Below, piece after piece: positions 36,999 through 56,206 of a DNA stretch of 64,000 nt. A program made the position numbers and the translations under genes. The stretch's first letter is position 1. Each line of letters starts with the position of its first letter. The stretch comes from Candidatus Heimdallarchaeum aukensis. GTDB lineage: Archaea; Asgardarchaeota; Heimdallarchaeia; Heimdallarchaeales; Heimdallarchaeaceae. Location of the stretch: NCBI GenBank assembly GCA_021513695.1, contig CP084166.1:352001-416000 (forward strand), read 5' to 3'. The notes below the pieces were generated by a model, which saw nothing but the letters and a program-made list of their open reading frames with translations, was not told the origin of the DNA and ran no database searches.

Positions 36999-37082
36999 TT
37001 TTTATTAACATTTTTTCTTCAATTTCTCTTTTTTGTAAATAAAATTAAAAAAATTTAAAAACAACTGACTATTTTAGAAACC

Positions 37083-38525: not shown

Positions 38526-38651
38526 TCCCTCTTTTACTCATAATTTTTTAAAAGAAATCTTAATTTCTCTTTTTTTATCATTTTTTTATCTATAAGAATC
38601 ATTTAAAGCTGAATAAGAAGATTTTTTTATTACGCTTCTATTGTTGTTTTA

Positions 38652-39692
38652 ATGAGGATTCTACAGAATAAAAAAAATAAAATCCTAGTTATCTTTACTT
38701 TTACGGTCTTTTGTTTAATGTTTGCTTACAACATTGTGGGAAAACCCACAAAAGATGAAAATGCAATGCTTTATTCTTATCAGAACATGTTAATCGTTCG
38801 ATATCACGATATAAGAGTAGATATTAGTTCTGTAGATGAGATTTTATGTAAGGAATCTTTTATTATTGAAAACTTTGAAAATAGTAGTCTTGACACAATT
38901 CCTTTGTGGTTCAATTATTCTATTAGTTCAATTAAAATTAAAGACATTAACGGTTCTCTTCTCTATAATTGGAAAGTTGTTGAAACTAATTCTAACTTTG
39001 TAGAAGTTTATTTAAGGAAAAACATAACATTACATGAAATTGCTTCCTTTTCGGTAGAATATGAACTGTTAAAAGATATTCCTCTGATACCAGCAGAAAA
39101 AAATTATTACTTATTTGAGTTTTATACATCTATTACCTATTCAACATCTGTATTAAATGTGGAGTTTTCTCTACCTGAAAATAGTTTTATTCATCAGAGT
39201 GATGAATCAATTTATCCAAACAATGGAGTACAGAAAATAAATTATAATAGAATAACTGTTTCATGGCAAAGCAATAATGTAAGTGCTTTCTCTAATCCCT
39301 TATTTTATGCTAAGTTTAACGAGCCCATAACTGTTGAAGAAAAACAAGGTTTTTTTGAAAAAGCTCTTAATCTTTTTCTTTCTGGTTTATTACTTGGCTT
39401 TTTCTTGGGTATAAGTTTTCTTTCTTGGTTTGCAAGATATAAAGAAAAAAGAGCAAAGAAGCAACTAGGTTTAACTCTTCTAGATGAAAATCAAAAAGAA
39501 TTGATTAAAATAGTTTATGAACACAATGGAAAAATAAGTCAGAAAGAAATGTGTACAGTTACAGGTTTTTCTAAATCAAAGATTAGCAGAAATTTGATTC
39601 CTTTAGAAAAAAGAGGGCTGATTTACAGAGAAAAATGGGGAAGAACATATGTTATCCACCTTACTAAAGAAGGAAAAACAGTTATTGAGTAA
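38652..39692 (+). CDS. Membrane-anchored transcription regulator: extracytoplasmic domain, then a TM helix, then a C-terminal cytoplasmic winged HTH (MarR/TrmB-like)
   Basis: 346 aa. N-terminal anchor ILVIFTFTVFCLMFAYNIV. About 200-aa extracytoplasmic region. Second TM LFLSGLLLGFFLGISFLSWF followed by RYKEKRAKKQ. wHTH region LTLLDENQKELIKIVYEHNGKISQKEMCTVTGFSKSKISRNLIPLEKRGLIYREKWGRTYVIHLTKEG. Confidence 0.55.
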   Translation: MRILQNKKNKILVIFTFTVFCLMFAYNIVGKPTKDENAMLYSYQNMLIVRYHDIRVDISSVDEILCKESFIIENFENSSLDTIPLWFNYSISSIKIKDINGSLLYNWKVVETNSNFVEVYLRKNITLHEIASFSVEYELLKDIPLIPAEKNYYLFEFYTSITYSTSVLNVEFSLPENSFIHQSDESIYPNNGVQKINYNRITVSWQSNNVSAFSNPLFYAKFNEPITVEEKQGFFEKALNLFLSGLLLGFFLGISFLSWFARYKEKRAKKQLGLTLLDENQKELIKIVYEHNGKISQKEMCTVTGFSKSKISRNLIPLEKRGLIYREKWGRTYVIHLTKEGKTVIE

Positions 39693-39821
39693 AACAAATG
39701 AAATTATAGATAGCAAATTCTTGTAGACTAGTTACTTTTTCAATTTTAGTTTCTAATTTCCTTTATTTGTTTATTTGTTTATTATAGGCCGTGATTTTAT
39801 ATGATTGTAAGTTTTTCAAAT

Positions 39822-39876
39822 CGTTTCACTTTTGTTTCACAAGTCATGCAACCGTTTCTATACTGTTTCACTTTTG
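39822..39876 (+). promoter_or_regulatory. Two direct repeats of GTTTCACTTTTG (plus a degenerate third copy, CGTTTCTATAC) about 45-100 nt upstream of the surface-protein gene
   Basis: Direct reading: tcgtttcacttttgtttcac ... accgtttctatactgtttcacttttgatg. The repeats are spaced 42 bp apart, centre to centre. Confidence 0.4.
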
Positions 39877-39920
39877 ATGAATCCAACTTTTAATAAATCA
39901 TCATTTCAACATTTAATCAG

Positions 39921-41000
39921 GTGAAAAAAATGAACAAGAAACTAACCACATATTTGGCTATTACAGGAGTATTATTTTTAGTACTTATGAGTTCTTTACC
40001 ACTAACTTCTTTGGCTTACAAAGAAGATAATGTAAATGTAGGTAAAGATAATGGATCTTTTATTATTGATACTCCACTATTAAAAGTAAAGCTAATGGAC
40101 AATAAACCTGATATTATGTTCTGGATTGCAAACGATACTGATTCGAATAAAAGAAACCCTGTACCTGCTTATCACGTAGGATTCAACTATGTAACAGAGC
40201 TATTTGGAGATGATTTAGTAGTAGATAACAGAACTGAACTCGGTGGAAAATCATACAATTTAGCAGCAATTGATTGGACTTTAACAACTGAAAATTATAC
40301 TAACGAAATTGTTTCAACTTTAACTTCTGAGATTTTATCTAATGGTGCAACAATTAGTTTTATTTTCCATGTTTTCACAGAAGATACAACTGTTACAAGA
40401 GTATTAAATGATAGCACTACTGTGACCTATGATGTAAAAGCTCTCTCTGAAGTCAAATTTGATATTGTTGTTTCAAATTGGACCTTCACAGAAGGAGCAG
40501 TAGGATTAACTTTTATTACAACTATACATGAACTTGCATATAGACACAGAGTAAGGGCAGGAAATGCTACACATACCCAAGGTGAAACAGAAAATAGAAA
40601 CAGTACTGAAACCTATCCAAGCGATAAAAGAAATAATGACCCTGAAAGATGGGGTGTAGAATTTACTGATGAAAAAGGAAATCTACAAAGCTATTTTGCT
40701 TGGACACCAGAAGCTGATGTTTTTGATGCAGACGACAATTACTTAAAAACGGTAAACGTAACTGCCACTACAGCTGAGAAAGGTTTCAAAGAAACAGATC
40801 ACTTTAACAAAAGATTTGGAATTGATTACTTATTCCTCTACCTTACTTATCCAAATTACGGAGACAATTTAAAACTTGTACACGACCCAACAATTGGAGT
40901 AGTTGAAAGTACAGGCGGTATTTCATGGTCAACAACTGCATCAATAGTCTTACCTTTAGTAATCGTAGGTTTAATAGTAATAAATAGAAGAAGAAAATAA
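39921..41000 (+). CDS. Secreted surface protein with a C-terminal TM anchor and RRRK tail
   Basis: 359 aa. Signal peptide LAITGVLFLVLMSSLPLTSLA. C-terminus IVLPLVIVGLIVINRRRK. Confidence 0.55.
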   Translation: MKKMNKKLTTYLAITGVLFLVLMSSLPLTSLAYKEDNVNVGKDNGSFIIDTPLLKVKLMDNKPDIMFWIANDTDSNKRNPVPAYHVGFNYVTELFGDDLVVDNRTELGGKSYNLAAIDWTLTTENYTNEIVSTLTSEILSNGATISFIFHVFTEDTTVTRVLNDSTTVTYDVKALSEVKFDIVVSNWTFTEGAVGLTFITTIHELAYRHRVRAGNATHTQGETENRNSTETYPSDKRNNDPERWGVEFTDEKGNLQSYFAWTPEADVFDADDNYLKTVNVTATTAEKGFKETDHFNKRFGIDYLFLYLTYPNYGDNLKLVHDPTIGVVESTGGISWSTTASIVLPLVIVGLIVINRRRK

Positions 41001-41819
41001 TTATCCTTTTTCTTTCTTTTTACTTTTTTTCATTTTACTTAAACTTTTAGCGTATTCTAAAGCTTCTTTGTATCTTTCTATAGTCTCAACTTGTAATTCG
41101 TCATCTGAATCTAAATTGGAAATTTTTTCTCTTAAAGTTCTTATAAAGAGTTTGAGTTCATCATCAGGAAGTTCTTCAATTATTGTCTTCGCCAAAGAAA
41201 TATTAGCTGTATCGACATTCGGAATGTCTAATTCTAAAGGGTTTTTTTCCCATTCTTCTATAGAATAAGCTAATTGTTCTGTTCCTAAAAGATCTATTAT
41301 TTGATCAATCTTGAAAGGAACAAGTTCTTTAAATCTTTTAAAGGCATTAGCATATTTTTCACTTTCTGCAATCCTAGTTGCAAAAAATCTGTCTGTTGGA
41401 AACAGAATTTTGACAGCACTTAATACAAAAGTACCTGACTGAAAAATCAAAACTAATGAGTTTGCTTCTGTTGAGTTTTCATTTGGTGAGGATAGAAAAG
41501 CCTTTTCCAATCTCTCTTTGTTGGTTAGTTTCCATATTCTTCTTAATAACTTTATTTCAAAAGCTCCTTTTACCTTCTTATTTTTACTTTCAATGAATAT
41601 TATGTAATCTTTTTTTCTAATTGTTCCAGTGTAATTTTTCCTTAATTGAGTTAGATCTACTTCTTCTCCTTCTTCTTTCTTCTCTCTATAATAAAAAATA
41701 ATTTTCTTCTCACTACTAATGAAAGATTTTTTACTTTCAGTTACCTCTCTGTCTGTGTCTCTAAGAAGTAAAATCTTCTCAAGAATAAAAGGAAGATTTT
41801 CTTCAGAAACATCAATCAT
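41001..41819 (-). CDS. Hypothetical acidic cytoplasmic protein
   Basis: 272-aa ORF with no recognisable motif. Its stop abuts the stop of the convergent surface-protein gene. Confidence 0.4.
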   Translation of the reverse strand: MIDVSEENLPFILEKILLLRDTDREVTESKKSFISSEKKIIFYYREKKEEGEEVDLTQLRKNYTGTIRKKDYIIFIESKNKKVKGAFEIKLLRRIWKLTNKERLEKAFLSSPNENSTEANSLVLIFQSGTFVLSAVKILFPTDRFFATRIAESEKYANAFKRFKELVPFKIDQIIDLLGTEQLAYSIEEWEKNPLELDIPNVDTANISLAKTIIEELPDDELKLFIRTLREKISNLDSDDELQVETIERYKEALEYAKSLSKMKKSKKKEKG

Positions 41820-41855
41820 AAAAGAACTATATGAAAATAAGTTTTTAACCTTTGC

Positions 41856-43205
41856 TCAATTTTGACAATATTTTTTAAAAACTTTAAATAGGTATAATTG
41901 TTTGATGTACCAGTCGTGATAAGGTTTAGGATCGTATTCTTTAGGAATTTTAGTATAGTGGTTGAAAATGTAGTTAATTTTTCTCAAACCTTTCAAAAAT
42001 CTATAAGTAGTTTTTATGTCTGTCAGTCCCTTGAAGAATTTAACTAAAAAATCGAAAAATGTCTGTTTGGGATATTTATTAAGAAACATCCTGTGTATTT
42101 CTGCTTTACTAATTAATCCTTTGCTGAATAAAAAGTATAACTTTTCTTTATCAAAACTCAAAATAAGGCTTCTAAAAGCTTCTAAAGCTGCAAGATGTCT
42201 TCCAGCTATTTTGAAAAATTCTACATGATATTTCCATAATCGATAGATTGATACTTCTTTTTTCTGTAAGGCATCTAAAATTACTTCAGATAGAATGTTT
42301 AAAGCAATAAGAGATAAATTCTTCCCTTCAACAGTGAAAGGATTTGTCTGAAATGCTGCTTCTCCAATTGAAAGAAAACCATACCAAGCTAGAGTTATTG
42401 GTCTTCTTACAACAACTTTTTCTGAAAAGGAATTTATAGGTGAAAGGTTTATTCCTTTAGATCTGTTAATTATTTCATTAGTTACAGCTTTTGCTTTTCT
42501 TTTTGTGAGATTCTTGTTAACAACAGTGAAAAAAGATAGAGTATTATTTTCTTTTTCTACATTAGTTACAAACTCTCTATCGAATAAACAGTAGAAAGAA
42601 TCACCTTCTAGCTGGATTTGGTTGAGTATCTTTTCACTTTTCTCGATTTTATTTCTGGAATAAAAAGTATCAACATATTCTTTAGAGGAAATTTTTATGT
42701 TTAGGTCAAGTATTTCGATGTTTTTAGTCAAAATTCGTTCTGTTCCTGAACAGTCGACAATGATTTTTCCATTAACTATTTTCCCTTCTTTTGTTTTTAC
42801 ACCAATAACCCATTGCCCTCTTCCTACAGGGTCAGTAATTTCTGTTTCAAAATTGAACTTTGCTCCCGCTTTAATCGCACTTTCAACCATGTAATTGATA
42901 TATTCCTTAAGGTTGAACCTAACATATTCTCTTTTTTGTAAGGAAATAGAGAAATTTAAATCACTAGAATAAAAGAAAGTTTTTCTAACAACATTTTCTA
43001 TGTCCTTGTAGGTTTGAAGAAGTTTAGAAGAGTTGAAAATTTTTTTATCTAAATATATGATTTGATCTTGTCCAATTTCTTCTCTTTTCTTCTTATCAAA
43101 TACAATCACTTTTTTTCCAGTAATAGCTAAACTAAAAGCTAGAGTTGCTCCTGTGAAACCAGTACCTACAATTATTACATCATATTGTTCTTCTTTCTTT
43201 GACAT
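41856..43205 (-). CDS. FAD-dependent oxidoreductase, geranylgeranyl-reductase-like
   Basis: N-terminal dinucleotide-binding motif YDVIIVGTGFTGATLAFSLAITGKKVIVFDKK. 449 aa, longer than a typical GGR, with an extra C-terminal helical domain. Confidence 0.5.
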   Translation of the reverse strand: MSKKEEQYDVIIVGTGFTGATLAFSLAITGKKVIVFDKKKREEIGQDQIIYLDKKIFNSSKLLQTYKDIENVVRKTFFYSSDLNFSISLQKREYVRFNLKEYINYMVESAIKAGAKFNFETEITDPVGRGQWVIGVKTKEGKIVNGKIIVDCSGTERILTKNIEILDLNIKISSKEYVDTFYSRNKIEKSEKILNQIQLEGDSFYCLFDREFVTNVEKENNTLSFFTVVNKNLTKRKAKAVTNEIINRSKGINLSPINSFSEKVVVRRPITLAWYGFLSIGEAAFQTNPFTVEGKNLSLIALNILSEVILDALQKKEVSIYRLWKYHVEFFKIAGRHLAALEAFRSLILSFDKEKLYFLFSKGLISKAEIHRMFLNKYPKQTFFDFLVKFFKGLTDIKTTYRFLKGLRKINYIFNHYTKIPKEYDPKPYHDWYIKQLYLFKVFKKYCQN

Positions 43206-43266
43206 TAAGTAAGCTTTCAGAATGAATTATTTGAACATTTTCTATTGCTTTGTTAGAGAGTGGATT

Positions 43267-43896
43267 TTACCCTGTTCCTCCAGTCACTAGTTCAAGCAAA
43301 AATGTTAGTAATGCAAGAATTATAATTGCTGGGAGAATTTTTAATGCGTAGATAATCTTATTTTCTTTTGAAATTGCTCCTAAAAGCATCCCCAGAATCA
43401 CTACTTCTACGACTATTAGAGAAATAGATATAATGTATCCCACTTGCATATTAAAAGCTTTAACTAGAACTAATAGAAACGGTGAAATTGAAATCGTGGC
43501 AAAGAGAAAGGGAGACAATCCATCTACAGCTGAAATGATCCAAGAGACCTTTAAATTTGCTTTGGCGAGCCTGGTGTTATTTAAGTTTGTAATCATATCT
43601 GCTTCCAAATCTTTAATTTCTTTAGTTCTTTCTGCTCGTTCAGTAAGATAAGCTATCCAAAAGCCTGAGATGCCCATAGCCATAGAAGCACTTATTCCAA
43701 GGATCAGCAATGTTTTAGCAGCAACCATGTCTTGTTCAGGGGTGCCAGACTTGAAACCGTGAGCTATCATCGATCCTATTATTAACCCTAAAGCTGTTAA
43801 AGCTCCATCAAAACCATTCATCACAAAATACCTGCGAAGGATATTTTCTCCTCCAGTTAAGGTGAGAATTTTACCTATGTCATTATCACTTTTCAA
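43267..43896 (-). CDS. VIT1/CCC1-family (DUF125) membrane protein, putative Fe/Mn transporter
   Basis: 209 aa. NGFDGALTALGLIIGS motif. Two blocks of hydrophobic helices separated by a charged loop. Confidence 0.45.
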   Translation of the reverse strand: MKSDNDIGKILTLTGGENILRRYFVMNGFDGALTALGLIIGSMIAHGFKSGTPEQDMVAAKTLLILGISASMAMGISGFWIAYLTERAERTKEIKDLEADMITNLNNTRLAKANLKVSWIISAVDGLSPFLFATISISPFLLVLVKAFNMQVGYIISISLIVVEVVILGMLLGAISKENKIIYALKILPAIIILALLTFLLELVTGGTG

Positions 43897-44016
43897 TTTT
43901 GTATTCCCAAAGAAAACTTCTAAAATATTTTTTTTTGAATTCTTTAAAGATTTTTCGGAATGAATGTTTTTTTAAATAAGTTACTTTTTCACTTTCAAAC
44001 AAGTGTCTAAAAAAGA

Positions 44017-44030
44017 TTTTAAATAGTATA
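44017..44030 (+). promoter_or_regulatory. TATA-box-like element (ttttaaatagtata) about 20-30 nt upstream of the nurA start, pointing to a near-leaderless operon start
   Basis: Direct reading. Position relative to the nurA ATG at 44049. Confidence 0.3.
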
Positions 44031-44048
44031 AGATTTAGAAAAATAAAG

Positions 44049-45362
44049 ATGCAAACTTTCTTTGACTCAGCTTTAGAAGCAGAATTTAATAAAATATACG
44101 AAAAATTGAAAAAACTTGAACGAAAAAACGATGACGAGTATCAAAGTGACTTGTCTTTCCTACTTGAACATTTTAGGATTTTTGAACCACTTGATACTAC
44201 TTGTCAAAGAGAAGACTTTAGCGTTTCTGCAATAGATGGGAGTGGAGCCAGCGATTTAATTAAATTGAATAATATTTCAGTACACCTTATCACTGCAGGC
44301 TTTTCTGCAGATCAAACAGATTTTAAAAAAGGAACCACAACAGAATTAGATATTAGACCTGAAATTAGTACATATCCCAACGGTGTAACTAAACTTGTTT
44401 TAATAAGAGAAGATGAAGAACTAGAAGTATGGGAAGAAATTACCAATTTTGTAAGAGAAAATTATGGTAAAGAACCAAAAGAAATAGTTTTTGATGTTCT
44501 TAGGACCATGATTTTAAGAAAAATGGAAAATGAAGGTAAAGATATTTCCAAAATACGAATAAAAAACACTTTCGAATTATTACATCAAGCTAAACTTGCA
44601 GGTTTTACTCTTTATAATAAACCATTAGAAAAATTTCATGAATGGATGATAAGTCCGAGACCACAGACTGGATGGTATGACCAGTTTAGAGAAATATTAG
44701 AATATTCTCTGGCATTTTCTATTTTGAAAACTAATAAAAAAATAAAATATTTATTCATTGATGGTTCAATGAACATGCTAATCTCAAAGAATCATAATCA
44801 ACCAAGATTAATTTCTAATTACCTTTTACGTGATTTATGTACAGAAGCTCTAAAGCGAGACACATGTGTAGTAGCTGTAAGTAAAACAACTACTTTTCCT
44901 TTTATTTACAAAATAGCTCAAGATGTTAGAAATCATCTTAAAGGAGAAAAAAAATGGTTTTTCCGTGTTCCTTCTAAGGAATTAGGAGAGACTCCTCTTC
45001 GTCTGTTAGAAGGAAAAAGTATTCCTCCAGAGAATGCTATTACTTATCTTTTCCATTTTTCTGCAGATTTACCTGTTTTAAGGATAGACTTCGATTTAGA
45101 TTGGTGGAAGAAGAATATTCATTCAGAAGATAAAGAAAAAGAGAAAGAGAGAGAAGTTGAGATGTTTAAAGAAATTGATTGGTTGTCTCGAGATGTAAGA
45201 TATCATGGTTATCTTTTTGATCTTGCTTTCTCTCATTTTAATGCTCTAATAACTTTCAAAGAGAGAGATTTAATTGCGGATAGATTAATTGATTTCTTTA
45301 CTGAAAAAGGTGAAGATCCAAGGAGATATATACACCCAAGAAAAAGATTAGGATTAATGTAA
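44049..45362 (+). CDS. nurA: NurA-family 5'-3' nuclease (HerA partner)
   Basis: 437 aa. N-terminal VSAIDGSGAS (the NurA motif-I Asp in an IDGS context), plus a second FIDGSMN. Immediately upstream of herA with a 12-nt gap. The operon context supports the call. Confidence 0.55.
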   Translation: MQTFFDSALEAEFNKIYEKLKKLERKNDDEYQSDLSFLLEHFRIFEPLDTTCQREDFSVSAIDGSGASDLIKLNNISVHLITAGFSADQTDFKKGTTTELDIRPEISTYPNGVTKLVLIREDEELEVWEEITNFVRENYGKEPKEIVFDVLRTMILRKMENEGKDISKIRIKNTFELLHQAKLAGFTLYNKPLEKFHEWMISPRPQTGWYDQFREILEYSLAFSILKTNKKIKYLFIDGSMNMLISKNHNQPRLISNYLLRDLCTEALKRDTCVVAVSKTTTFPFIYKIAQDVRNHLKGEKKWFFRVPSKELGETPLRLLEGKSIPPENAITYLFHFSADLPVLRIDFDLDWWKKNIHSEDKEKEKEREVEMFKEIDWLSRDVRYHGYLFDLAFSHFNALITFKERDLIADRLIDFFTEKGEDPRRYIHPRKRLGLM

Positions 45363-45374
45363 AAAGGTGAAAAA

Positions 45375-47255
45375 ATGGTAAAATTAGAATTAACAGAACC
45401 AATAGGAATATTAGCAGAAGGAGATATCTCATCGTTAAAAGTGATATCAAAGGATATTAGATATCAAGTTGGTGAAATATTAATTATCACCCATCCTGAA
45501 ACTCCGGAAATCTATTTGTTTCGGGTGATGAATTATGAAAATATTCTCCGATCAAGTTCTGATATGAGCTATGTTGCTTCAAATATTTTGAAAAACAGAA
45601 CAGCATATATTGCGAGGGTAGAAAATGAGAAAATGGTAAAAGTATCTGGAATCTTGATGGGTTACTCTCTTTATGATGAAAATAAGAAAAAGTGGATTCT
45701 ACATAAACCTCGCTCTCTCCCTCCTCATTTTTCATATGTTTATCGAGGGTCTGAGTGTAAAGCAGCCTTACAAGATCTCTTATGGTCAGAATTTGGTAAT
45801 GATATAGAAATAGGAAAATTACAAGTAGGTGCTACAACCTTAGATATCCCAATTAAACTAGATGTAGAAGCTCTTCCAATGCATGTACAAGTAGCAGGAA
45901 CAACAGGAGCAGGAAAATCTTTCTTCATGTTGACAATGATTACTTCAAGTCTTAAAAATAATGTAATTAACGCTTTAAAACCTTCAAAGGCAGATACTAT
46001 TAACAAGAAAATTTCTTTCTTCATGGTAGACGTACATGATGAATACATGAGAGGAATGAAAGAACCTGAAACAAATGCAAGATATGGTATAAAAGATATA
46101 GCTGAAGCAAGCTTAAAGCAAGATAAAGATATTTACAACCTTCTATTTGGAAAGAATTTCTATCTTACTTCTGATATGGAAAGTGTAGAAAAAGATATGC
46201 AAAAATATGCTAAAGCCTTACGTTTCAGACTTGAAGATATAGAGGTAAGTGATATCATTTCAGTAATGGAAGTCACAGATCAAATGGCTTCATTCATGTA
46301 TTGGATTAAATCTCATAATGAAAATTGGATTTCAACTATTTTAGAATTAGGAGAAGAAGATGATCAAGGAGGATTTTCTAAAGGGACAGTAAATGCAGTA
46401 AAAAGAAGGCTCAGGAGTATATACAACTCTCCTATTTTCAGAGAGTCGAGAACTATCACAACTTCTGATGAAAAAAATCAAGAACAATCAAGCGTTAGTT
46501 TTAGTGATTTAGCAGAAATAGTTTACAATTTAGAACAAGGACATTTCTATAATTTTAGTTCAGCACTATTAAGTTCGACAGAACAATTTATCGTTTTAAC
46601 TATGTTAGCAAGAACAATCTTTGCTTTAAGACAATCTTTAATGTCTTCTACAAGATGGTCTCAGTTTGAAAAACAAGTAGAGTCAAGATTACCAAGACAA
46701 ATAAGTAACGAATTGCTAGGAAAAACAAATTCTTCTTTTTCGATAAAGGATCTCTATATTAAAAATAAAGAAGGAAACGACTATATTCTTAAAAAAGTGA
46801 ATGAACTTCCTGTAATTCTTCTCACAATTGAAGAAGCTCCAAGTATTTTGGGAGTACAGATGTCTAAACAAGGAAATGTGTTCGTTGACATTAGTAGACA
46901 AGGAAGAAAGTTTGGAATAGGCATGTTACTTATTACTCAAAATATTTCAGCGATGGAACCTTTGATTTTAGCCAATACAAACACAGAAATAAACATGATG
47001 CTAGGAAATGAGATAGAGATAAAACAAGCAATCATCAACGCCAGTAACAACATTACAGGATACGAACATGAGTTTAGAGTATTAAACAGAGGTGAAGCTA
47101 TAGTTACTAACTCTTTACGCAATATTCCCATGCCTGTGAAGATACACAATGCACCAGTTTTAATTAAAGAAAATTTGTCTTTCTTTGAAAATCCTTATGA
47201 TAGTTTGAAAATAAAAAAAGAAAAAAGGATATCTAAAGATATTCCTCTTCTTTAA
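45375..47255 (+). CDS. herA: HerA-family (FtsK/HerA superfamily) hexameric DNA translocase/helicase
   Basis: 626 aa. Walker A VAGTTGAGKS. Candidate Walker B FFMVDVHDEY. Conserved C-terminal RQGRKFGIGMLLITQNIS (the HerA arginine-finger region). The N-terminal region before the ATPase core is consistent with a HAS barrel. Confidence 0.75.
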   Translation: MVKLELTEPIGILAEGDISSLKVISKDIRYQVGEILIITHPETPEIYLFRVMNYENILRSSSDMSYVASNILKNRTAYIARVENEKMVKVSGILMGYSLYDENKKKWILHKPRSLPPHFSYVYRGSECKAALQDLLWSEFGNDIEIGKLQVGATTLDIPIKLDVEALPMHVQVAGTTGAGKSFFMLTMITSSLKNNVINALKPSKADTINKKISFFMVDVHDEYMRGMKEPETNARYGIKDIAEASLKQDKDIYNLLFGKNFYLTSDMESVEKDMQKYAKALRFRLEDIEVSDIISVMEVTDQMASFMYWIKSHNENWISTILELGEEDDQGGFSKGTVNAVKRRLRSIYNSPIFRESRTITTSDEKNQEQSSVSFSDLAEIVYNLEQGHFYNFSSALLSSTEQFIVLTMLARTIFALRQSLMSSTRWSQFEKQVESRLPRQISNELLGKTNSSFSIKDLYIKNKEGNDYILKKVNELPVILLTIEEAPSILGVQMSKQGNVFVDISRQGRKFGIGMLLITQNISAMEPLILANTNTEINMMLGNEIEIKQAIINASNNITGYEHEFRVLNRGEAIVTNSLRNIPMPVKIHNAPVLIKENLSFFENPYDSLKIKKEKRISKDIPLL

Positions 47256-47288
47256 TAATAGAATCAAAAATAATTTGAATGAAAGAAG

Positions 47289-48570
47289 GTGAAATTAGTG
47301 GTAAAAATAGCTCATATGTCTGATACTCATTTATCACATAGAAGAGTAAGAAATGTTAGAGATAGTTGGAAAGAAAGATATAGAGTAAGTTGGATAGAGA
47401 ATGACTTTTCATTAGCTTTTCAAAGAGCTTTAGATGCAGCTATTGAAACTAAATGTGATTTTCTAGTTCATTCAGGAGATTTGTTTGATGTTCCTGTAAA
47501 AAGAAATACAACTTCACCTTCTGAATATGCAAGAGCTATTGCAATAAGTGAAATAAGAAGATTTTTGGAAGCTACACATTTTAAAGTACCTATAATTATA
47601 ATTGATGGAAATCATGGAACTTATCTTTACAGGAATAATAGTACTATAGAATTCATAAAATCAGCTTTCCCTGAAAATGTGTTTATAGCCACAAATTATG
47701 ACCTTAAACGAGCAATAGTAAAAAATGAACCTTTGAAAGTAGAGTTTGAAGAGATTAACTTTTATCTGTTTCCTTATTTAGAATTCAAATCTATGGCTAA
47801 TTATGAAGAACTCTATGATGAATGGATAAGTAAATGCCAAGAGCCTGAAGACGGAAAAATTAATGTTGCAGTAGCTCACGGAATGTTTAGGAATTTGGAT
47901 TTGCATGAAAAATTATTCTCTTTTCCTTATGATTATGTAGCTTTAGGACACGATCACCAACAAAGAAAATATGCTCCAAACGCTTGGCAAGCAGGAAGTA
48001 CAGAAAAATATACCTTTGCTGAAAGAGGACAAGAAAAGTATTTTAGAAGTTATTATTGAGAAAGGAAAAAATTTACACATTAATCCAATAAAGGTTGTTA
48101 GCCAAAGAGAAATGAAACAATTCGAAGTAGAATTAAGTTCAGACATGAGTGCATTAACTGTAGAAGAAAAAATAAGAGAACTTGTAGCAAGTTATAGAAA
48201 GAACTTTGATGGAAACACAGCTGCGAGAATAAAAGTTAAGTTACAAGGAAAAACTTCTCTCTCCTACTGGTGGACAATAGAAGATCGTTTAGTAGAAATA
48301 CAGAAAAATGTTCTAACTGAAGAATATAACATCCTAGAATTTAGATGGGATGAAGAAGAGTTAAAGAAATCTATACCTCAAAGCCTAGCCAAAACACCAC
48401 AAATGGATCAATACCTAATTGAAGATCCAGTCAGGGATTTTGTAAATTATTTGAAAAACTTAGAAATAGATGATGAAGTAAAATTTGAACAATATGCAAA
48501 ACTAGGACCAGAAATAATTAAAGAGGTTTTTAGTGAAGGATTTATTTCTTCAAAGGAGGAGTTAGAATGA
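47289..48570 (+). pseudogene. mre11: mre11 copy 1, disrupted by a frameshift (split into ORFs 47289..48059 and 47971..48570)
   Basis: All Mre11 phosphoesterase motifs are present (DTHLS, GDLFD, GNHG, VAHG, GHDHQ). The reading frame changes at caagaaaag|tatttt (about 48036). Copy 2 has caagaaaaaggtatttt and a single 427-aa ORF. Confidence 0.8.
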
Positions 48571-50699
48571 AAATTCTTTGGATACACATGGAGAATTTTA
48601 AATGCTACCGCAATGAGAGGATTCCAGAAACAGGTATCCTTCCAAAAGGATTGATTTTTGTAGAGGGAGAGAATTCGGTAGGAAAAACTTCTTTGTTTGA
48701 TGCAATATATTACGCTCTTTTTTACGAACCTACAAAGGACAAAGCCATTTTAGGTACAAAAGATATGCTAGTAAAAAGAGGAGAAAAAGAGACTATCGTA
48801 GAAGTTGCTTTTGAAATAATGAATAAATACTTTGTAGTACAAAAGCAACATGGAATATCAACTCCTCTAAAAGTAGTTTTACTTCAAATTGATAGAGAGA
48901 TGGCTGAAAAAGGAGAATTAAAAAATCCCATTAAAATAGCAGAAGGACTAGAGGATGTAAACAAGAAATTGTTTGAACTATTAAATATCACAAGCGAAAG
49001 CGTGTTGAGCACTCTAATAGTAAATCAAGGAGAAGTGCAAAAACTAGCAGAAGCTAAAGGAGCAGAACTTAGAGATATAATTTACAAACTTTTTCATTTA
49101 GATGATATAAGAGAAAAGTTGAAACGTGTGATTAATAGAAAAATGGAGATTTTAGATGAAGAATGGGAAAAATACAAAATTGAGCGCACAACAGAGAATA
49201 TTCTTGAAGAAATTAAAGAAATAGAGATAGAGAAAGAAACGAAAGAGAAAGAGTTAGTAAAAGCAAAAAATGAACTGGAAAAAATAGAAGAGAAAATCTC
49301 TCAATATCCTAAACATGAAGATATTCAATCAATAAGCAATATTTTAACTCAAATACAGCAAACCAAAGAAACTATTTCTAAGCAAGAAAGAATAATTAAA
49401 CAAAAATCTGAAACTTTAGAAATCAAGGAACTAACACAAGAAGAAATAAAGGATAAAATCTTAGAAATAGAGAAGATTATTCAGAAAACTAACAATAACA
49501 TAGAAAATTTAAGAAACAAAAGAGATAAAGTCCAGAAAAAGTTGCATAGTCTCCAAAGAGATCTTGCTGAAATAAAAGAAAAAATCAAGAAACTAGAAAG
49601 TCATGAAGTAGGACATGAAGAAGATTTTACTTGCGAATTATGCGAACAAACGATGCCCTACTCGAAATTTAAGGAATTAGTAGAGAGTAAAAAACAATCA
49701 ATTACAAATATTGAATTAGGGATTAAGAAAAGAACTGCAGAAAAAAGAGAAGTAGAGAAACAAATTGAAAAAGAAAGCAATTATATTAATAAGCTAAAAG
49801 AACAAATTTTTTCACTTAATAATGTCAAAGATAGGCTAGATAATCTAGAGAATAACAAGAAAGAATTGGATAAAAAACAAAATAATTTAATAACACAACT
49901 TAAAAAATTCAAAGTCCAGACAGTTGATCAGCTTTCAAAGAAATATAATGTCGAAAACTTTGAGGAATTCTTTTCAATTATAAGTCAACTGAAATCTGAT
50001 AAAGCTAGTCTAAATGCATCAATAAGTCATCTAAATAAAACTATTGAAAAACTAAAACAAAGGAAAAATCAATTAGAAAAAGAAATAGACAAAAATAAGG
50101 AAAAGGAAGAGAAACAAGAGAGTATTCTTCAAGAACAAGCTGCACTAAAAGATGTAGAAGGTGTAGTTTCAAGTTTTATAGCTGAGGAGCTAATCTCCAA
50201 TAGATTGCTTGCAGGAATACAGCAGACAACTAATCCTAATATAAACTTGTTTACGAGAGGAAAATACTCAGAGATATATCTAGAAGCAACTACAAAGAAA
50301 ACTTTAAGGTTAAGCGTTTTAGACAAAGAAGAAGAATTCGTAAAAAATCAAGAGTTCCTTTCAGGAGGAGATAAAGCAGCTATAGGACTAGGATTGAGAT
50401 TAGGTATAAGCGAATTACTAAAACAAATTAGACCATTCAAAGATTCTCCTCATAATCCTCCAAGGATGGATATAATGATACTTGATGAGCCTTTGGGTTC
50501 ACTTGATAGTGAAAGAAGGAAAAAAGTTCTAGAAGGATTGTTGATACAGAAGAAATTCAGTCAAATATTTCTGATTACACATACAAATGTTAGAGAAGAA
50601 CTTCGAGCTCCTTCAATTCGAGTAAGTAGAACAGAAAAAGGTAGCTCTACAGCCTATTACCCTGCTCCAAGTAAAATAGAGTTAGAATCTGAAGAATGA
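48567..50699 (+). CDS. rad50: Rad50-family SMC-like ATPase (copy 1)
   Basis: 710 aa. Walker A GENSVGKTSLFDAI. Long central coiled coil with a CxxC zinc hook (CELC) near the mid-point (about residue 354). Signature LSGGDKAAIGLGLRL. Walker B IMILDEP. H-loop LITHT. The start overlaps the mre11 stop (ATGA). Confidence 0.8.
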   Translation: MKILWIHMENFKCYRNERIPETGILPKGLIFVEGENSVGKTSLFDAIYYALFYEPTKDKAILGTKDMLVKRGEKETIVEVAFEIMNKYFVVQKQHGISTPLKVVLLQIDREMAEKGELKNPIKIAEGLEDVNKKLFELLNITSESVLSTLIVNQGEVQKLAEAKGAELRDIIYKLFHLDDIREKLKRVINRKMEILDEEWEKYKIERTTENILEEIKEIEIEKETKEKELVKAKNELEKIEEKISQYPKHEDIQSISNILTQIQQTKETISKQERIIKQKSETLEIKELTQEEIKDKILEIEKIIQKTNNNIENLRNKRDKVQKKLHSLQRDLAEIKEKIKKLESHEVGHEEDFTCELCEQTMPYSKFKELVESKKQSITNIELGIKKRTAEKREVEKQIEKESNYINKLKEQIFSLNNVKDRLDNLENNKKELDKKQNNLITQLKKFKVQTVDQLSKKYNVENFEEFFSIISQLKSDKASLNASISHLNKTIEKLKQRKNQLEKEIDKNKEKEEKQESILQEQAALKDVEGVVSSFIAEELISNRLLAGIQQTTNPNINLFTRGKYSEIYLEATTKKTLRLSVLDKEEEFVKNQEFLSGGDKAAIGLGLRLGISELLKQIRPFKDSPHNPPRMDIMILDEPLGSLDSERRKKVLEGLLIQKKFSQIFLITHTNVREELRAPSIRVSRTEKGSSTAYYPAPSKIELESEE

Positions 50700-50775
50700 T
50701 TCTTTTTTCATTATCTTTATCTTTTTTGAGAATAATATTTATATCTAAAAATGGAAATGTTCTCTAGGGTTTGAA

Positions 50776-52146
50776 ATGATACCTGGAACACTTAGACCTT
50801 TACCAAAAAGATTAGCTAAAGTAAAAACAGAAGCTGAAAGGCTTTTTAGAGCAGTGGACTATGATTACGAGACTATTAAAGAAATACTAAAATCTAGTAA
50901 AAATTTTGAATTTGAAGAAATAAGAAGACAATATATTAATTGTATAAATCATCACATAAGAATAGTTCCACTCGTAAAAGAAGCAGATAAATTGTTAGTT
51001 AAATATTCAAGAGATCCACTTCTAAAAGAAATGGTTTTCAAACTATTTGATAAGTTGGAAAAATATGAATACAGATTGAATGGTGATATTCAACGACTTG
51101 ATACTATTTTAATGTCGAAAAGAAAAGAATACATCAATAAAACAATTCCACTAGTGAAATCAGAAATAAGAAGCAAGTTATCTTTCTTAAGAGACCTAGA
51201 TTTTGAGCAATTACTCGCTGACAGTGAAAAATATTCTGCTATTATTTCAGGCATCGTAGATCGTGTAAATATATTAAAAGACGAGTATCAAAAATTAATC
51301 GAAAATGCTCTTGAAAGCGCAGTAGAAGCTTATAAAGAGTTAAAAGAAAAACTAGACGAACTTGAAGATGAACTAAAAGAGTATGTTCTTATTCTTGCTA
51401 CTTGTAAGATGGAATTGCTAATTAACGATTCAAAAACTTTGCTTGAAGAAGGAGTTAAAATATTCGAACGTTTTGAATTAGAACAAACAACTGAACTCAT
51501 AGAAGAAGCACAAGAGTACCTAGAAAAAGCAAAACCAACTCTAAAAGAGATGAATGAATTAAAGGTAGATATTCCTAAAAAAGCAATGAAAAAGAGCTTT
51601 GAAACAAAATTCCGAGAATTAAGAAATAAATTCGAAGAAAATAAATTTACTCTAGATGAATTGATAAACAACATCGAAACTAGAAATAGGTTACTATCGA
51701 CAAATATTGAAAGAATTGATGCATTAAAAGAGCTAGCAAAATCAATGTCGAGTGACATCAAAGAAACAGGAGAAATATTAAAAATAAAAAGAATGGGTAC
51801 ATTTAAACTATACTTGAAAGAAAATCTTATTCCACACATGGAGTTGCAAGAAAATGGTATAGTAAAAATACCAAAGGCAGAAGAACTCACGGCAACTTTT
51901 ATAGATGAAATAATCTTGACTCTTGAAGATGTAGATAATAAAAATATAGTTAAGGACTGGTTCAATGCTTTTAGAGCAACAAAAGTAGGTAAGTGGATAT
52001 ATGAAACTTCAATCAAAATTAAAAATAAAATAGTAGACATAACAAAGAAGATTGTAAAAAAAACTAAAAAATGGATCCAAGAAATGAAAGAAAAAAGAGA
52101 ACAGAAAAAATCGCAAGAAAATCAACAAAAAGAAGAGAAGAAATAG
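50776..52146 (+). CDS. Uncharacterised 456-aa coiled-coil protein (copy 1), co-oriented immediately after rad50
   Basis: Highly charged sequence with heptad-like K/E/L content throughout. No enzymatic motif. Lysine-rich C-terminal tail. Duplicated with mre11-rad50. Confidence 0.6.
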   Translation: MIPGTLRPLPKRLAKVKTEAERLFRAVDYDYETIKEILKSSKNFEFEEIRRQYINCINHHIRIVPLVKEADKLLVKYSRDPLLKEMVFKLFDKLEKYEYRLNGDIQRLDTILMSKRKEYINKTIPLVKSEIRSKLSFLRDLDFEQLLADSEKYSAIISGIVDRVNILKDEYQKLIENALESAVEAYKELKEKLDELEDELKEYVLILATCKMELLINDSKTLLEEGVKIFERFELEQTTELIEEAQEYLEKAKPTLKEMNELKVDIPKKAMKKSFETKFRELRNKFEENKFTLDELINNIETRNRLLSTNIERIDALKELAKSMSSDIKETGEILKIKRMGTFKLYLKENLIPHMELQENGIVKIPKAEELTATFIDEIILTLEDVDNKNIVKDWFNAFRATKVGKWIYETSIKIKNKIVDITKKIVKKTKKWIQEMKEKREQKKSQENQQKEEKK

Positions 52147-52311
52147 CAACATTATGTGATTTTGTGTTTTTGTGTAAAAATTCTCTATTTTTTTGTTAAA
52201 TTTATTACTATATAATAATGAATACAAAAAGAAATTAGGTTGAAATTATATCATTCATTGAATTTTTGAAAAAATTTTTGCCAAAAAAAATAAATATTTA
52301 GTTATATATAT

Positions 52312-52542
52312 GTGGTATGTATTAAAATGACTTCAGATTCATCTTGTTATTGTATTGTAAGAATAACTTGGCCTAAATGGATAGTTGCAACTGGACAGAT
52401 AGCTTTAGGTATTGGAATACTCTTATTGATCATTTTTTCGATCTTTTACACAAAGACAAGTTGGGAAAATTTTTCGCTATACGGAATCTACGTGGGAGCA
52501 GGTTTTTTGCTACTTGGGGCACTAATTAGCTATAGTTACTAA
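52312..52542 (+). CDS. Small 2-TM membrane protein (copy 1). The last 5 codons are replaced by the duplication junction, so it ends ...LISYSY instead of ...LILSSNDW
   Basis: 76 aa, two hydrophobic helices. Its C-terminus reads into the herA 3' fragment at 52528. Confidence 0.4.
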   Translation: MVCIKMTSDSSCYCIVRITWPKWIVATGQIALGIGILLLIIFSIFYTKTSWENFSLYGIYVGAGFLLLGALISYSY

Positions 52543-52687
52543 CTCTTTACGCAATATTCCCATGCCTGTGAAGATACACAATGCACCAGTTTTAATTAAA
52601 GAAAATTTGTCTTTCTTTGAAAATCCTTATGATAGTTTGAAAATAAAAAAAGAAAAAAGGATATCTAAAGATATTCCTCTTCTTTAA
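52528..52687 (+). pseudogene. herA: Orphan herA 3' fragment (last 53 codons plus stop) created by the tandem duplication
   Basis: Identical to 47096..47255. No start codon and no upstream herA body. Confidence 0.8.
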
Positions 52688-52720
52688 TAATAGAATCAAA
52701 AATAATTTGAATGAAAGAAG

Positions 52721-54004
52721 GTGAAATTAGTGGTAAAAATAGCTCATATGTCTGATACTCATTTATCACATAGAAGAGTAAGAAATGTTAGAGATAGTTG
52801 GAAAGAAAGATATAGAGTAAGTTGGATAGAGAATGACTTTTCATTAGCTTTTCAAAGAGCTTTAGATGCAGCTATTGAAACTAAATGTGATTTTCTAGTT
52901 CATTCAGGAGATTTGTTTGATGTTCCTGTAAAAAGAAATACAACTTCACCTTCTGAATATGCAAGAGCTATTGCAATAAGTGAAATAAGAAGATTTTTGG
53001 AAGCTACACATTTTAAAGTACCTATAATTATAATTGATGGAAATCATGGAACTTATCTTTACAGGAATAATAGTACTATAGAATTCATAAAATCAGCTTT
53101 CCCTGAAAATGTGTTTATAGCCACAAATTATGACCTTAAACGAGCAATAGTAAAAAATGAACCTTTGAAAGTAGAGTTTGAAGAGATTAACTTTTATCTG
53201 TTTCCTTATTTAGAATTCAAATCTATGGCTAATTATGAAGAACTCTATGATGAATGGATAAGTAAATGCCAAGAGCCTGAAGACGGAAAAATTAATGTTG
53301 CAGTAGCTCACGGAATGTTTAGGAATTTGGATTTGCATGAAAAATTATTCTCTTTTCCTTATGATTATGTAGCTTTAGGACACGATCACCAACAAAGAAA
53401 ATATGCTCCAAACGCTTGGCAAGCAGGAAGTACAGAAAAATATACCTTTGCTGAAAGAGGACAAGAAAAAGGTATTTTAGAAGTTATTATTGAGAAAGGA
53501 AAAAATTTACACATTAATCCAATAAAGGTTGTTAGCCAAAGAGAAATGAAACAATTCGAAGTAGAATTAAGTTCAGACATGAGTGCATTAACTGTAGAAG
53601 AAAAAATAAGAGAACTTGTAGCAAGTTATAGAAAGAACTTTGATGGAAACACAGCTGCGAGAATAAAAGTTAAGTTACAAGGAAAAACTTCTCTCTCCTA
53701 CTGGTGGACAATAGAAGATCGTTTAGTAGAAATACAGAAAAATGTTCTAACTGAAGAATATAACATCCTAGAATTTAGATGGGATGAAGAAGAGTTAAAG
53801 AAATCTATACCTCAAAGCCTAGCCAAAACACCACAAATGGATCAATACCTAATTGAAGATCCAGTCAGGGATTTTGTAAATTATTTGAAAAACTTAGAAA
53901 TAGATGATGAAGTAAAATTTGAACAATATGCAAAACTAGGACCAGAAATAATTAAAGAGGTTTTTAGTGAAGGATTTATTTCTTCAAAGGAGGAGTTAGA
54001 ATGA
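52721..54004 (+). CDS. mre11: Mre11 nuclease (calcineurin-like phosphoesterase), intact copy
   Basis: 427 aa, uninterrupted. Motifs I-V: HMSDTHLSH, DFLVHSGDLFD, IIDGNHG, VAVAHG, ALGHDHQ. The C-terminal capping/DNA-binding domain is present. Confidence 0.85.
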   Translation: MKLVVKIAHMSDTHLSHRRVRNVRDSWKERYRVSWIENDFSLAFQRALDAAIETKCDFLVHSGDLFDVPVKRNTTSPSEYARAIAISEIRRFLEATHFKVPIIIIDGNHGTYLYRNNSTIEFIKSAFPENVFIATNYDLKRAIVKNEPLKVEFEEINFYLFPYLEFKSMANYEELYDEWISKCQEPEDGKINVAVAHGMFRNLDLHEKLFSFPYDYVALGHDHQQRKYAPNAWQAGSTEKYTFAERGQEKGILEVIIEKGKNLHINPIKVVSQREMKQFEVELSSDMSALTVEEKIRELVASYRKNFDGNTAARIKVKLQGKTSLSYWWTIEDRLVEIQKNVLTEEYNILEFRWDEEELKKSIPQSLAKTPQMDQYLIEDPVRDFVNYLKNLEIDDEVKFEQYAKLGPEIIKEVFSEGFISSKEELE

Positions 54005-56130
54005 AAATTCTTTGGATACACATGGAGAATTTTAAATGCTACCGCAATGAGAGGATTCCAGAAACAGGTATCCTTCCAAAAGGATTGATTTTTGTAGAGG
54101 GAGAGAATTCGGTAGGAAAAACTTCTTTGTTTGATGCAATATATTACGCTCTTTTTTACGAACCTACAAAGGACAAAGCCATTTTAGGTACAAAAGATAT
54201 GCTAGTAAAAAGAGGAGAAAAAGAGACTATCGTAGAAGTTGCTTTTGAAATAATGAATAAATACTTTGTAGTACAAAAGCAACATGGAATATCAACTCCT
54301 CTAAAAGTAGTTTTACTTCAAATTGATAGAGAGATGGCTGAAAAAGGAGAATTAAAAAATCCCATTAAAATAGCAGAAGGACTAGAGGATGTAAACAAGA
54401 AATTGTTTGAACTATTAAATATCACAAGCGAAAGCGTGTTGAGCACTCTAATAGTAAATCAAGGAGAAGTGCAAAAACTAGCAGAAGCTAAAGGAGCAGA
54501 ACTTAGAGATATAATTTACAAACTTTTTCATTTAGATATAAGAGAAAAGTTGAAACGTGTGATTAATAGAAAAATGGAGATTTTAGATGAAGAATGGGAA
54601 AAATACAAAATTGAGCGCACAACAGAGAATATTCTTGAAGAAATTAAAGAAATAGAGATAGAGAAAGAAACGAAAGAGAAAGAGTTAGTAAAAGCAAAAA
54701 ATGAACTGGAAAAAATAGAAGAGAAAATCTCTCAATATCCTAAACATGAAGATATTCAATCAATAAGCAATATTTTAACTCAAATACAGCAAACCAAAGA
54801 AACTATTTCTAAGCAAGAAAGAATAATTAAACAAAAATCTGAAACTTTAGAAATCAAGGAACTAACACAAGAAGAAATAAAGGATAAAATCTTAGAAATA
54901 GAGAAGATTATTCAGAAAACTAACAATAACATAGAAAATTTAAGAAACAAAAGAGATAAAGTCCAGAAAAAGTTGCATAGTCTCCAAAGAGATCTTGCTG
55001 AAATAAAAGAAAAAATCAAGAAACTAGAAAGTCATGAAGTAGGACATGAAGAAGATTTTACTTGCGAATTATGCGAACAAACGATGCCCTACTCGAAATT
55101 TAAGGAATTAGTAGAGAGTAAAAAACAATCAATTACAAATATTGAATTAGGGATTAAGAAAAGAACTGCAGAAAAAAGAGAAGTAGAGAAACAAATTGAA
55201 AAAGAAAGCAATTATATTAATAAGCTAAAAGAACAAATTTTTTCACTTAATAATGTCAAAGATAGGCTAGATAATCTAGAGAATAACAAGAAAGAATTGG
55301 ATAAAAAACAAAATAATTTAATAACACAACTTAAAAAATTCAAAGTCCAGACAGTTGATCAGCTTTCAAAGAAATATAATGTCGAAAACTTTGAGGAATT
55401 CTTTTCAATTATAAGTCAACTGAAATCTGATAAAGCTAGTCTAAATGCATCAATAAGTCATCTAAATAAAACTATTGAAAAACTAAAACAAAGGAAAAAT
55501 CAATTAGAAAAAGAAATAGACAAAAATAAGGAAAAGGAAGAGAAACAAGAGAGTATTCTTCAAGAACAAGCTGCACTAAAAGATGTAGAAGGTGTAGTTT
55601 CAAGTTTTATAGCTGAGGAGCTAATCTCCAATAGATTGCTTGCAGGAATACAGCAGACAACTAATCCTAATATAAACTTGTTTACGAGAGGAAAATACTC
55701 AGAGATATATCTAGAAGCAACTACAAAGAAAACTTTAAGGTTAAGCGTTTTAGACAAAGAAGAAGAATTCGTAAAAAATCAAGAGTTCCTTTCAGGAGGA
55801 GATAAAGCAGCTATAGGACTAGGATTGAGATTAGGTATAAGCGAATTACTAAAACAAATTAGACCATTCAAAGATTCTCCTCATAATCCTCCAAGGATGG
55901 ATATAATGATACTTGATGAGCCTTTGGGTTCACTTGATAGTGAAAGAAGGAAAAAAGTTCTAGAAGGATTGTTGATACAGAAGAAATTCAGTCAAATATT
56001 TCTGATTACACATACAAATGTTAGAGAAGAACTTCGAGCTCCTTCAATTCGAGTAAGTAGAACAGAAAAAGGTAGCTCTACAGCCTATTACCCTGCTCCA
56101 AGTAAAATAGAGTTAGAATCTGAAGAATGA
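54001..56130 (+). CDS. rad50: Rad50-family ATPase (copy 2; one Asp codon shorter, HLDIREK instead of HLDDIREK)
   Basis: 709 aa. Identical to copy 1 except for the in-frame 3-nt deletion. Confidence 0.8.
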   Translation: MKILWIHMENFKCYRNERIPETGILPKGLIFVEGENSVGKTSLFDAIYYALFYEPTKDKAILGTKDMLVKRGEKETIVEVAFEIMNKYFVVQKQHGISTPLKVVLLQIDREMAEKGELKNPIKIAEGLEDVNKKLFELLNITSESVLSTLIVNQGEVQKLAEAKGAELRDIIYKLFHLDIREKLKRVINRKMEILDEEWEKYKIERTTENILEEIKEIEIEKETKEKELVKAKNELEKIEEKISQYPKHEDIQSISNILTQIQQTKETISKQERIIKQKSETLEIKELTQEEIKDKILEIEKIIQKTNNNIENLRNKRDKVQKKLHSLQRDLAEIKEKIKKLESHEVGHEEDFTCELCEQTMPYSKFKELVESKKQSITNIELGIKKRTAEKREVEKQIEKESNYINKLKEQIFSLNNVKDRLDNLENNKKELDKKQNNLITQLKKFKVQTVDQLSKKYNVENFEEFFSIISQLKSDKASLNASISHLNKTIEKLKQRKNQLEKEIDKNKEKEEKQESILQEQAALKDVEGVVSSFIAEELISNRLLAGIQQTTNPNINLFTRGKYSEIYLEATTKKTLRLSVLDKEEEFVKNQEFLSGGDKAAIGLGLRLGISELLKQIRPFKDSPHNPPRMDIMILDEPLGSLDSERRKKVLEGLLIQKKFSQIFLITHTNVREELRAPSIRVSRTEKGSSTAYYPAPSKIELESEE

Positions 56131-56206
56131 TTCTTTTTTCATTATCTTTATCTTTTTTGAGAATAATATTTATATCTAAAAATGGAAATGTTCTCTAGGG
56201 TTTGAA

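Follow-up and report, generated by a model that had tools for sequence, protein, structure and literature searches.

How do the Heimdallarchaeia, among known archaea the nearest relatives of eukaryotes, resect broken DNA ends, and is the locus responsible intact in the circularised genome of Candidatus Heimdallarchaeum aukensis PM71 (Wu et al. 2022; PMC8813620)? The question is raised by four consecutive genes resembling nurA, herA, mre11 and rad50 in a 64,000-nucleotide (nt) stretch of that genome (contig CP084166.1, positions 352,001 to 416,000, forward strand; hereafter the window, whose numbering is used throughout). We read the locus as a chromosomal double-strand break (DSB) end-resection module that is present as a single intact copy in the real genome, and a tandem repeat and two small indels in the deposited sequence as artefacts; we put the probability of this reading at roughly 0.78. 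In this lineage the resection module would link HerA-NurA of the archaeal kind to Mre11-Rad50. Such a system is already known, and the PM71 locus adds a divergent member to it; the chief gains beyond that are a hidden NurA subfamily recognised in Asgard archaea and an assembly error flagged in a reference genome. The original prediction for this locus had assigned it to DSB end resection, and domain, profile, fold and motif evidence supports this.

The array as deposited, up to the first gene beyond rad50, is laid out as follows:

44018–44025, + strand: TATA-box-like element TTTAAATA, with an A-rich stretch on its 5′ side and 23 nt to the nurA ATG
44049–45362, + strand: nurA-like gene, 437 amino acids (aa)
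45375–47255, + strand: herA, 626 aa
47289–48570, + strand: mre11 copy 1, interrupted
48567–50699, + strand: rad50 copy 1, 710 aa, with a short coiled coil and a CxxC hook
50776–52146, + strand: ORF456 copy 1, 456 aa, with a Lys-rich tail

We reproduced the architecture originally described, with open reading frames (ORFs) of 437, 626 and 710 aa all on the + strand, gaps of 12 nt (nurA/herA) and 33 nt (herA/mre11), and a 4-nt ATGA overlap between mre11 and rad50 that we read as translational coupling. All of the named NurA, HerA, Mre11 and Rad50 motifs were located in the translations, and the AT-richness was confirmed by a measured G+C content of ~30% for the window. The description of the four-gene set as complete stands for nurA, herA and rad50; mre11, which had been treated as a single ORF within 44049–50699, is frameshifted in the deposit and split into products of 256 and 199 aa.

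The TATA-like element noted before nurA was found at 44018–44025. The octamer TTTAWATA occurs 13 times in the window versus an expected 38.4 ± 6.9, a depletion of about three-fold; two of the 13 fall in the 152-nt gap 5′ of nurA (43971–43978 and 44018–44025) and none lies inside the cluster. Since the octamer is depleted, the TATA call is better than chance. Its position suggests a single promoter and a leaderless or short-leader mRNA, and the depletion itself suggests selection against spurious promoters. A sigma-70 promoter scan of the window gave hits at chance level, with a model that is irrelevant to archaea.

Three of the four products were recognised directly by profile searches. HerA matches the DUF87/HerA central domain (PF01935) at 4e-12, above the cut-off, and FtsK_SpoIIIE is also matched in Pfam. 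Walker A (GTTGAGKS, residues 175–182), Walker B (LLTIEE, 482–487), RQGRK (508–512) and TQN (521) are all present. A HerA family profile places the Thermococcus (9x1l; 5.5e-23) and Sulfolobus (4d2i; 1e-19) structures first, ahead of anti-phage HerAs and FtsK. The original identification of the 626-aa ATPase as HerA thus survives, with repair HerA structures on top and no placement among VirB4/TraG-type ATPases. No Pfam match to an N-terminal HAS-barrel was obtained at E≤0.1, and the PDB matches span the ATPase core only. The protein appears from its sequence to be a hexameric translocase ATPase of the FtsK/HerA type, divergent and outside the curated equivalog clades.

Mre11 is a calcineurin-type phosphoesterase that matches Metallophos (PF00149) at 1.1e-10, and its best models and structures are those of SbcD and Mre11, the best solved relatives being SbcD (7dog) and Pyrococcus (Pf) Mre11 (1ii7). 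Its phosphoesterase motifs are DxH (residues 12–14), GD (63–64), GNH (107–109), H197 and GHxH (220–223). No hidden Markov model (HMM) matches the C-terminal 200 aa. For Rad50, the four top NCBIfam matches are Rad50 equivalogs (113–120 bits), below which come an archaea-specific SMC-related protein (84 bits) and SbcC (83 bits). Pfam AAA_23 is matched at 3.8e-13, and the best PDB matches are the Methanocaldococcus (Mj) and Pyrococcus (Pf) Rad50 heads. The motifs comprise Walker A (34–41), Q154, a CELC hook (356–359), LSGG (598), IMILDE (636–641) and ITH (670). The CxxC hook is flanked on each side by ~165–185 aa of Gly/Pro-poor, E/K/Q/L-rich sequence, and these flanks probably form an antiparallel coiled coil. 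Rad50 had been singled out as short, which holds beyond this genome: relatives are 692–712 aa long, and a Sifarchaeia/Borrarchaeum-type relative has 856 aa. A short-armed Rad50 of ~700 aa conserved in a clade offers a natural variant for studies of coiled-coil length in Mre11-Rad50.

The 437-aa protein, originally called NurA-like, was recognised by a less direct route. Its predicted model has the RNase H-like fold in common with solved NurA structures, and the fold comparison gave these values:

TdpB (8wet): 10.8
Sulfolobus NurA (2ygk): 10.7
Thermococcus NurA (9x1l_G): 7.6
Deinococcus NurA (7f6d_G): 6.4
TM1739 (1zup): 6.3
PIWI domains: about 6

Homology can also be followed through intermediates. 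Among 28 diverse members of the family, 16 match PF09376 (best E 2.2e-8), and one orthologue (L005) does so faintly (E 0.035). The two best PDB matches of a diverse family profile (A2) are Sulfolobus NurA (E 0.014) and Pyrococcus NurA (E 0.027). Alignment of the profile to 2ygk and 3tai places E218 on E116 of the Sulfolobus (Sso) protein, D238 on D133, Y388 on Y298 and F390 on F300, and sets D63 on the aspartate of the Pyrococcus AVDGS motif. In Sso NurA, D58, E116 and D133 are catalytic and K202 and Y298 are conserved (Blackwood et al. 2012, PMC3326311); K279 may correspond to K202, as judged from motif order only. The protein has an IDGS motif at D63 and a second one at D238. No member of the Heimdallarchaeaceae clade departs from D63, D238, K279 or D347, and E218 is conserved there as well. 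We thus predict an RNase H-like nuclease whose site comprises D63, E218 and D238, plus K279 and Y388; a helical insertion of ~100 aa separates the first two of these residues.

A relative with 29% identity carries the NCBI name 'DNA double-strand break repair nuclease NurA', and in every related locus nurA lies directly upstream of herA with a gap of ~12–20 nt. Fold, transitive homology, active-site alignment and the relative's annotation together support membership in the NurA superfamily, as originally proposed. The homologues of both the 437-aa and the 626-aa proteins are all from Heimdallarchaeaceae. At 90% identity the 437-aa family makes up only 29 clusters, and an exhaustive profile search of 1.84 billion proteins reached 54 representatives, none of them a canonical NurA. 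This is a small, fast-evolving NurA subfamily that standard HMMs overlook. The public annotation of the divergent NurA is 'hypothetical protein', so HMM-based surveys of Asgard repair genes will score NurA as absent.

Members of the divergent NurA-like family (proteins P0099 and P0184) occur in a cyanobacterium (Pleurocapsa minor) as well as in Asgard archaea, a hint that the subfamily has been transferred between domains.

The interrupted mre11 belongs to a larger anomaly that the original prediction overlooked, a tandem repeat of 5.43 kb. The PM71 genome was built from metaSPAdes contigs of Illumina reads, scaffolded in two LRScaf rounds with Nanopore reads of amplified DNA and polished with pilon (PMC8813620). 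ORF456 is 100% identical to K9W45_01580 of this organism. For comparison we used L035, a 115.9-kb contig from an independent Logan assembly of run SRR15988954. The repeat and the features in and around its second copy are:

47096–52527: repeat unit copy 1, 5432 nt, starting 160 nt before the herA stop codon
52528–57958: repeat unit copy 2, 5431 nt, its end lying 21 nt short of the small membrane gene's stop codon
52312–52542, + strand: chimeric ORF over the repeat junction, joining the small membrane gene to a herA 3′ fragment (52528–52687)
52721–54004, + strand: mre11 copy 2, intact, 427 aa, the version found in independent assemblies
54001–56130, + strand: rad50 copy 2, 709 aa, with one GAT fewer than copy 1 and L035
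56207–57577, + strand: ORF456 copy 2, identical to copy 1
57758–57979, + strand: intact small membrane protein gene, 73 aa, marking the cluster boundary, with the H+-pyrophosphatase gene next on the − strand

Each unit contains the 3′ end of herA, mre11, rad50, ORF456 and most of the small membrane gene. By exact mapping the copies differ by no substitutions and by only two indels. In mre11, copy 1 has GAAAAGTATT where copy 2 has GAAAAAGGTATT, a 2-nt deletion at 48037/48038 that shifts the frame at codon 250 and splits copy 1 into 47289–48059 (256 aa) and 47971–48570 (199 aa), with all phosphoesterase motifs upstream of the frameshift. In rad50, copy 1 has GATGAT where copy 2 has GAT, so that copy 2 lacks one Asp codon. 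The junction between the copies, GGGGCACTAATT|AGCTATAGTTAC, has no microhomology and truncates two genes.

L035 matches the window without a mismatch over 35375–52527 (17.2 kb) and 52528–62684 (10.2 kb), and on this ground we take it to be from the same strain. It encodes the window's HerA exactly and carries a single copy of nurA, herA, an intact mre11 (AAAAAGG), a 710-aa rad50 (GATGAT), ORF456, the small membrane gene and the pyrophosphatase gene; its Rad50 is identical to the copy 1 product. No break interrupts L035 at either repeat boundary, and it does not contain the junction 40-mer. A de Bruijn assembler should be unable to cross both boundaries of a fixed tandem repeat unbranched, and because L035 does pass both unbranched, the junction must be absent or rare in the SRR15988954 reads. 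An exact search of JGI metagenome contigs did not find the junction 24-mer; the right repeat boundary had no exact match there either, which is uninformative as related strains differ at that point. In L001 and L002, two related contigs assembled from short reads (~98.5% identical), mre11 is intact and rad50 encodes 710 aa; the 2-nt deletion in mre11 is absent from L035, L001, L002 and the complete sister genome PR6. PR6 (L009) and 24 other species loci have a single copy. Very probably the repeat, the mre11 frameshift and the rad50 indel were all produced by the assembly and not by biology. The likely cause of the repeat is that two overlapping contigs were joined end to end and then polished, scaffolding of overlapping contigs being presumably prone to false tandem repeats.

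The best surviving alternative is that the duplication is real and very recent, in PM71 or a subpopulation of the enrichment, with one mre11 then decaying and the other rad50 losing a codon. Independent mutation after duplication would be expected to leave what is seen here, one private indel per copy relative to the consensus of L035, L001, L002 and PR6. The deposit was polished at 346x (PMC8813620), and the two related short-read contigs stop ~100 nt before the junction position, as is typical near repeat ends. Set against this are the same-strain assembly, which crosses both boundaries without a branch and shows one copy and neither indel, the complete lack of substitutions over 5.4 kb, the absence of the junction from metagenome contigs, the single copy in PR6 and every other species, a junction that lacks microhomology and truncates two genes, and a scaffolding method that we expect to favour this very error. 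We consider a real duplication unlikely. We reject programmed frameshifting in mre11 copy 1 on the ground that the independent assembly lacks the deletion, and a circular 5.4-kb element on the ground that unique chromosome flanks the repeat at both sides. Left uncorrected, a false repeat and a false frameshift in a 'complete' reference genome such as that of PM71 would distort counts of gene copies, the calling of pseudogenes and the analysis of repeats.

The 73-aa membrane protein (57758–57979; partial at 52327–52527) shows ~60% identity between PM71 and PR6, versus 90–94% in the flanks, and the L001 and L002 contigs both end inside its gene. Judging from these sequences, the gene appears to be a hypervariable spot that breaks assemblies.

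Conservation of the locus bears on its function. A genome scan with a narrow family alignment found 26 Heimdallarchaeaceae species loci, including that of the complete PR6 genome, in which DAO-like and VIT1-like (− strand) genes precede a nurA-herA-mre11-rad50-ORF456-like array. None of the 26 has more than one copy of it. Measured against PR6, NurA is 93% identical, HerA 95%, Mre11 91%, Rad50 83% and ORF456 90%, in agreement with the genome-wide average amino acid identity of 90% between PM71 and PR6 (PMC8813620). The same four-gene order is found on more distant Asgard contigs (HerA 34–37% identical) and in a Sifarchaeia/Borrarchaeum-type lineage. The neighbours are of a housekeeping kind and encode transporters, a pyrophosphatase, MsrB and TrmO. 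From these comparisons the locus appears to belong to the vertically inherited core of the genome rather than to a defence island.

A second alternative would make the cluster a defence against mobile elements, combining a TdpAB-type HerA/NurA-like pair with an SbcCD/Lamassu-like SMC nuclease. In PADLOC, HerA matches several anti-phage HerA models and mad8, and Rad50 matches LmuB and mad3; all four proteins are also unusually divergent, as is common among defence genes. The closest template is tdpABC, a phosphorothioate-based defence system with a HerA-like TdpA and a NurA-like TdpB (PMC12914056). The sequence identity to TdpAB (8wet) is only 11%, however, and the PM71 cluster, unlike that pair, is linked to Mre11-Rad50 at a fixed core-genome position. 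No tdpC-like modification gene was detected in the window or in any related locus, nor does a methylase partner accompany the cluster. Its fixed chromosomal position, identities that track genome-wide divergence, single copy across all 26 species loci and lack of defence or mobile genes among the neighbours are likewise not those of a defence system, repair HerA and Rad50 outrank their defence relatives in the searches, and Rad50 has a zinc hook. We regard a defence role as quite unlikely.

Several observations weigh against an intact resection module as the explanation of this locus. The 437-aa protein has no match to NurA (PF09376) in Pfam at E≤0.1–1 and none in NCBIfam or PADLOC, and a narrow clade profile found no match among PDB sequences. 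In the NurA-family HMM comparison on which the original prediction had staked its assignment, the protein thus gave no direct match, and it was not placed in another family either. In its AlphaFold2 (AF2) model the predicted local distance difference test score (pLDDT) is <50 over residues 57–98, D63 included. HerA reaches 50 and 47 bits against NCBIfam NF040819 and NF040937, versus cut-offs of 970 and 800; Mre11 is far below its equivalog cut-off; and for Rad50 the cut-offs are 700–1087 bits versus the 113–120 scored. With scores so far under the cut-offs, we treat HerA, Mre11 and Rad50 as divergent members of their families and not as equivalogs. The two T6 runs between rad50 and ORF456 suggest that ORF456, perhaps with some read-through, is controlled separately. 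Each repeat copy has one private indel, as real duplication followed by decay would also give. The comparison behind the artefact claim is between assembled contigs, and SRR15988954 may be a library other than the one used for the deposit. From the missing direct HMM match, the low confidence around D63 and the loss of the DGS or DG[ST]L aspartates in some distant family members it could be argued that the 437-aa protein, though RNase H-like or PIWI-like, does something else than NurA 5′ resection, for instance as an inactive or structural HerA partner. We consider this very improbable: the Heimdallarchaeaceae clade retains D63, D238, K279 and D347 without exception and conserves E218, the motifs align with NurA catalytic residues, NurA structures rank above PIWI in the fold comparison and the gene is always immediately 5′ of herA.

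The mode of action of an end-resection module in PM71 can be proposed from what is known of its homologues in Sulfolobus and Pyrococcus (PMC3326311, PMC7776575). Four packed, co-directional genes would be expressed under one TATA-like promoter, followed by the lineage-specific fifth gene. An Mre11 dimer and a Rad50 dimer would recognise and tether the DNA ends, with Rad50 arms of ~165–185 residues joined through the CxxC zinc hook, and Mre11-Rad50 would make the first cuts. A HerA hexamer docked on the ring of a NurA dimer could then drive the duplex into the NurA active sites (D63, E218, D238), where the 5′ strand would be degraded to leave a 3′ tail for RadA. By analogy, the 437-aa protein is expected to have HerA-stimulated 5′-3′ nuclease activity.

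Placed beside known systems, the PM71 array combines familiar and divergent features. In thermophiles the usual gene order is herA-mre11-rad50-nurA, and a HerA-NurA/Mre11-Rad50 operon of thermophilic archaea was reportedly described by Constantinesco in 2002 and 2004. Clustering of the four genes in thermophilic archaea is documented in reviews (PMC3326311, PMC7776575). As in Sulfolobus and Pyrococcus, the same four families are encoded together on one strand in PM71, including a NurA with an RNase H-like fold and an Asp-Glu-Asp site, an FtsK-type HerA ATPase, an Mre11 with phosphoesterase motifs and a Rad50 with an ABC head and a CxxC hook. Unlike in those organisms, the order is nurA-herA-mre11-rad50, NurA has the ~100-aa helical insertion and escapes PF09376, Rad50 is ~170–190 aa shorter with short coiled coils, and an extra lineage-specific gene follows rad50. 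The PM71 host also differs in having been enriched at 37 °C, from Auka hydrothermal vent sediment (PMC8813620).

The nurA-first order had been considered noteworthy for this genome. Instead it is the rule in several Asgard lineages, where we would regard it as normal on the basis of the loci compared. Gene order and spacing are identical in other Asgard arrays, including those of Candidatus H. endolithica PR6 and AB_125; proteins are 83–95% identical to those of PR6 and 40–62% to those of other Heimdallarchaeaceae, and the flanking genes are common within the family. The tandem repeat and the broken mre11 are found only in the PM71 deposit. The Sifarchaeia/Borrarchaeum-type relative, by contrast, differs from PM71 in its 856-aa Rad50 and in lacking ORF456. 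PM71 also resembles bacterial SbcCD in that its Mre11 scores about equally on SbcD and archaeal Mre11 models and its Rad50 matches SbcC at 83 bits; unlike SbcCD, its Rad50 scores higher on Rad50 equivalogs (113–120 bits), its genes are linked to HerA-NurA and its host is archaeal.

An ORF456-like gene follows rad50 throughout the 26 Heimdallarchaeaceae species loci, and from this distribution appears to be a conserved fifth gene specific to the family. The ORF456 product is a spectrin-like bundle made up of helices only, and its tail is lysine-rich. In the 76-nt gap between rad50 and ORF456 (50700–50775 and 56131–56206 in the two copies), two T6 runs directly follow the rad50 stop and TTTATATC lies 32 nt upstream of the ORF456 ATG, an arrangement suggestive of termination after rad50 and of a promoter of its own for ORF456. 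ORF456 may be a fifth component or regulator of Mre11-Rad50/HerA-NurA, with a role like that of Nbs1 or CtIP/Sae2, which we think rather unlikely; adjacency adds little here because unrelated upstream genes are equally syntenic. In L001 (13804–15098) the ORF456 orthologue is split into ORFs of 41 and 371 aa, either by strain-level decay or by another assembly error.

tRNA and Rfam scans of the window were both empty, and exact look-ups of the pyrophosphatase, ORF456 and the 709-aa Rad50 returned no record. Beyond the cluster, the H+-translocating pyrophosphatase gene (58015–60051, − strand) has 37% G+C versus ~30% in the rest of the window. Close by, at 61131–61931, lies the gene for a 266-aa protein with leucine-rich repeats. 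The TrmO-like ORF (62409–62930) contains a 24-nt tandem repeat of 2.2 copies (62432–62483) that duplicates the N-terminal peptide IGDNMHFE.

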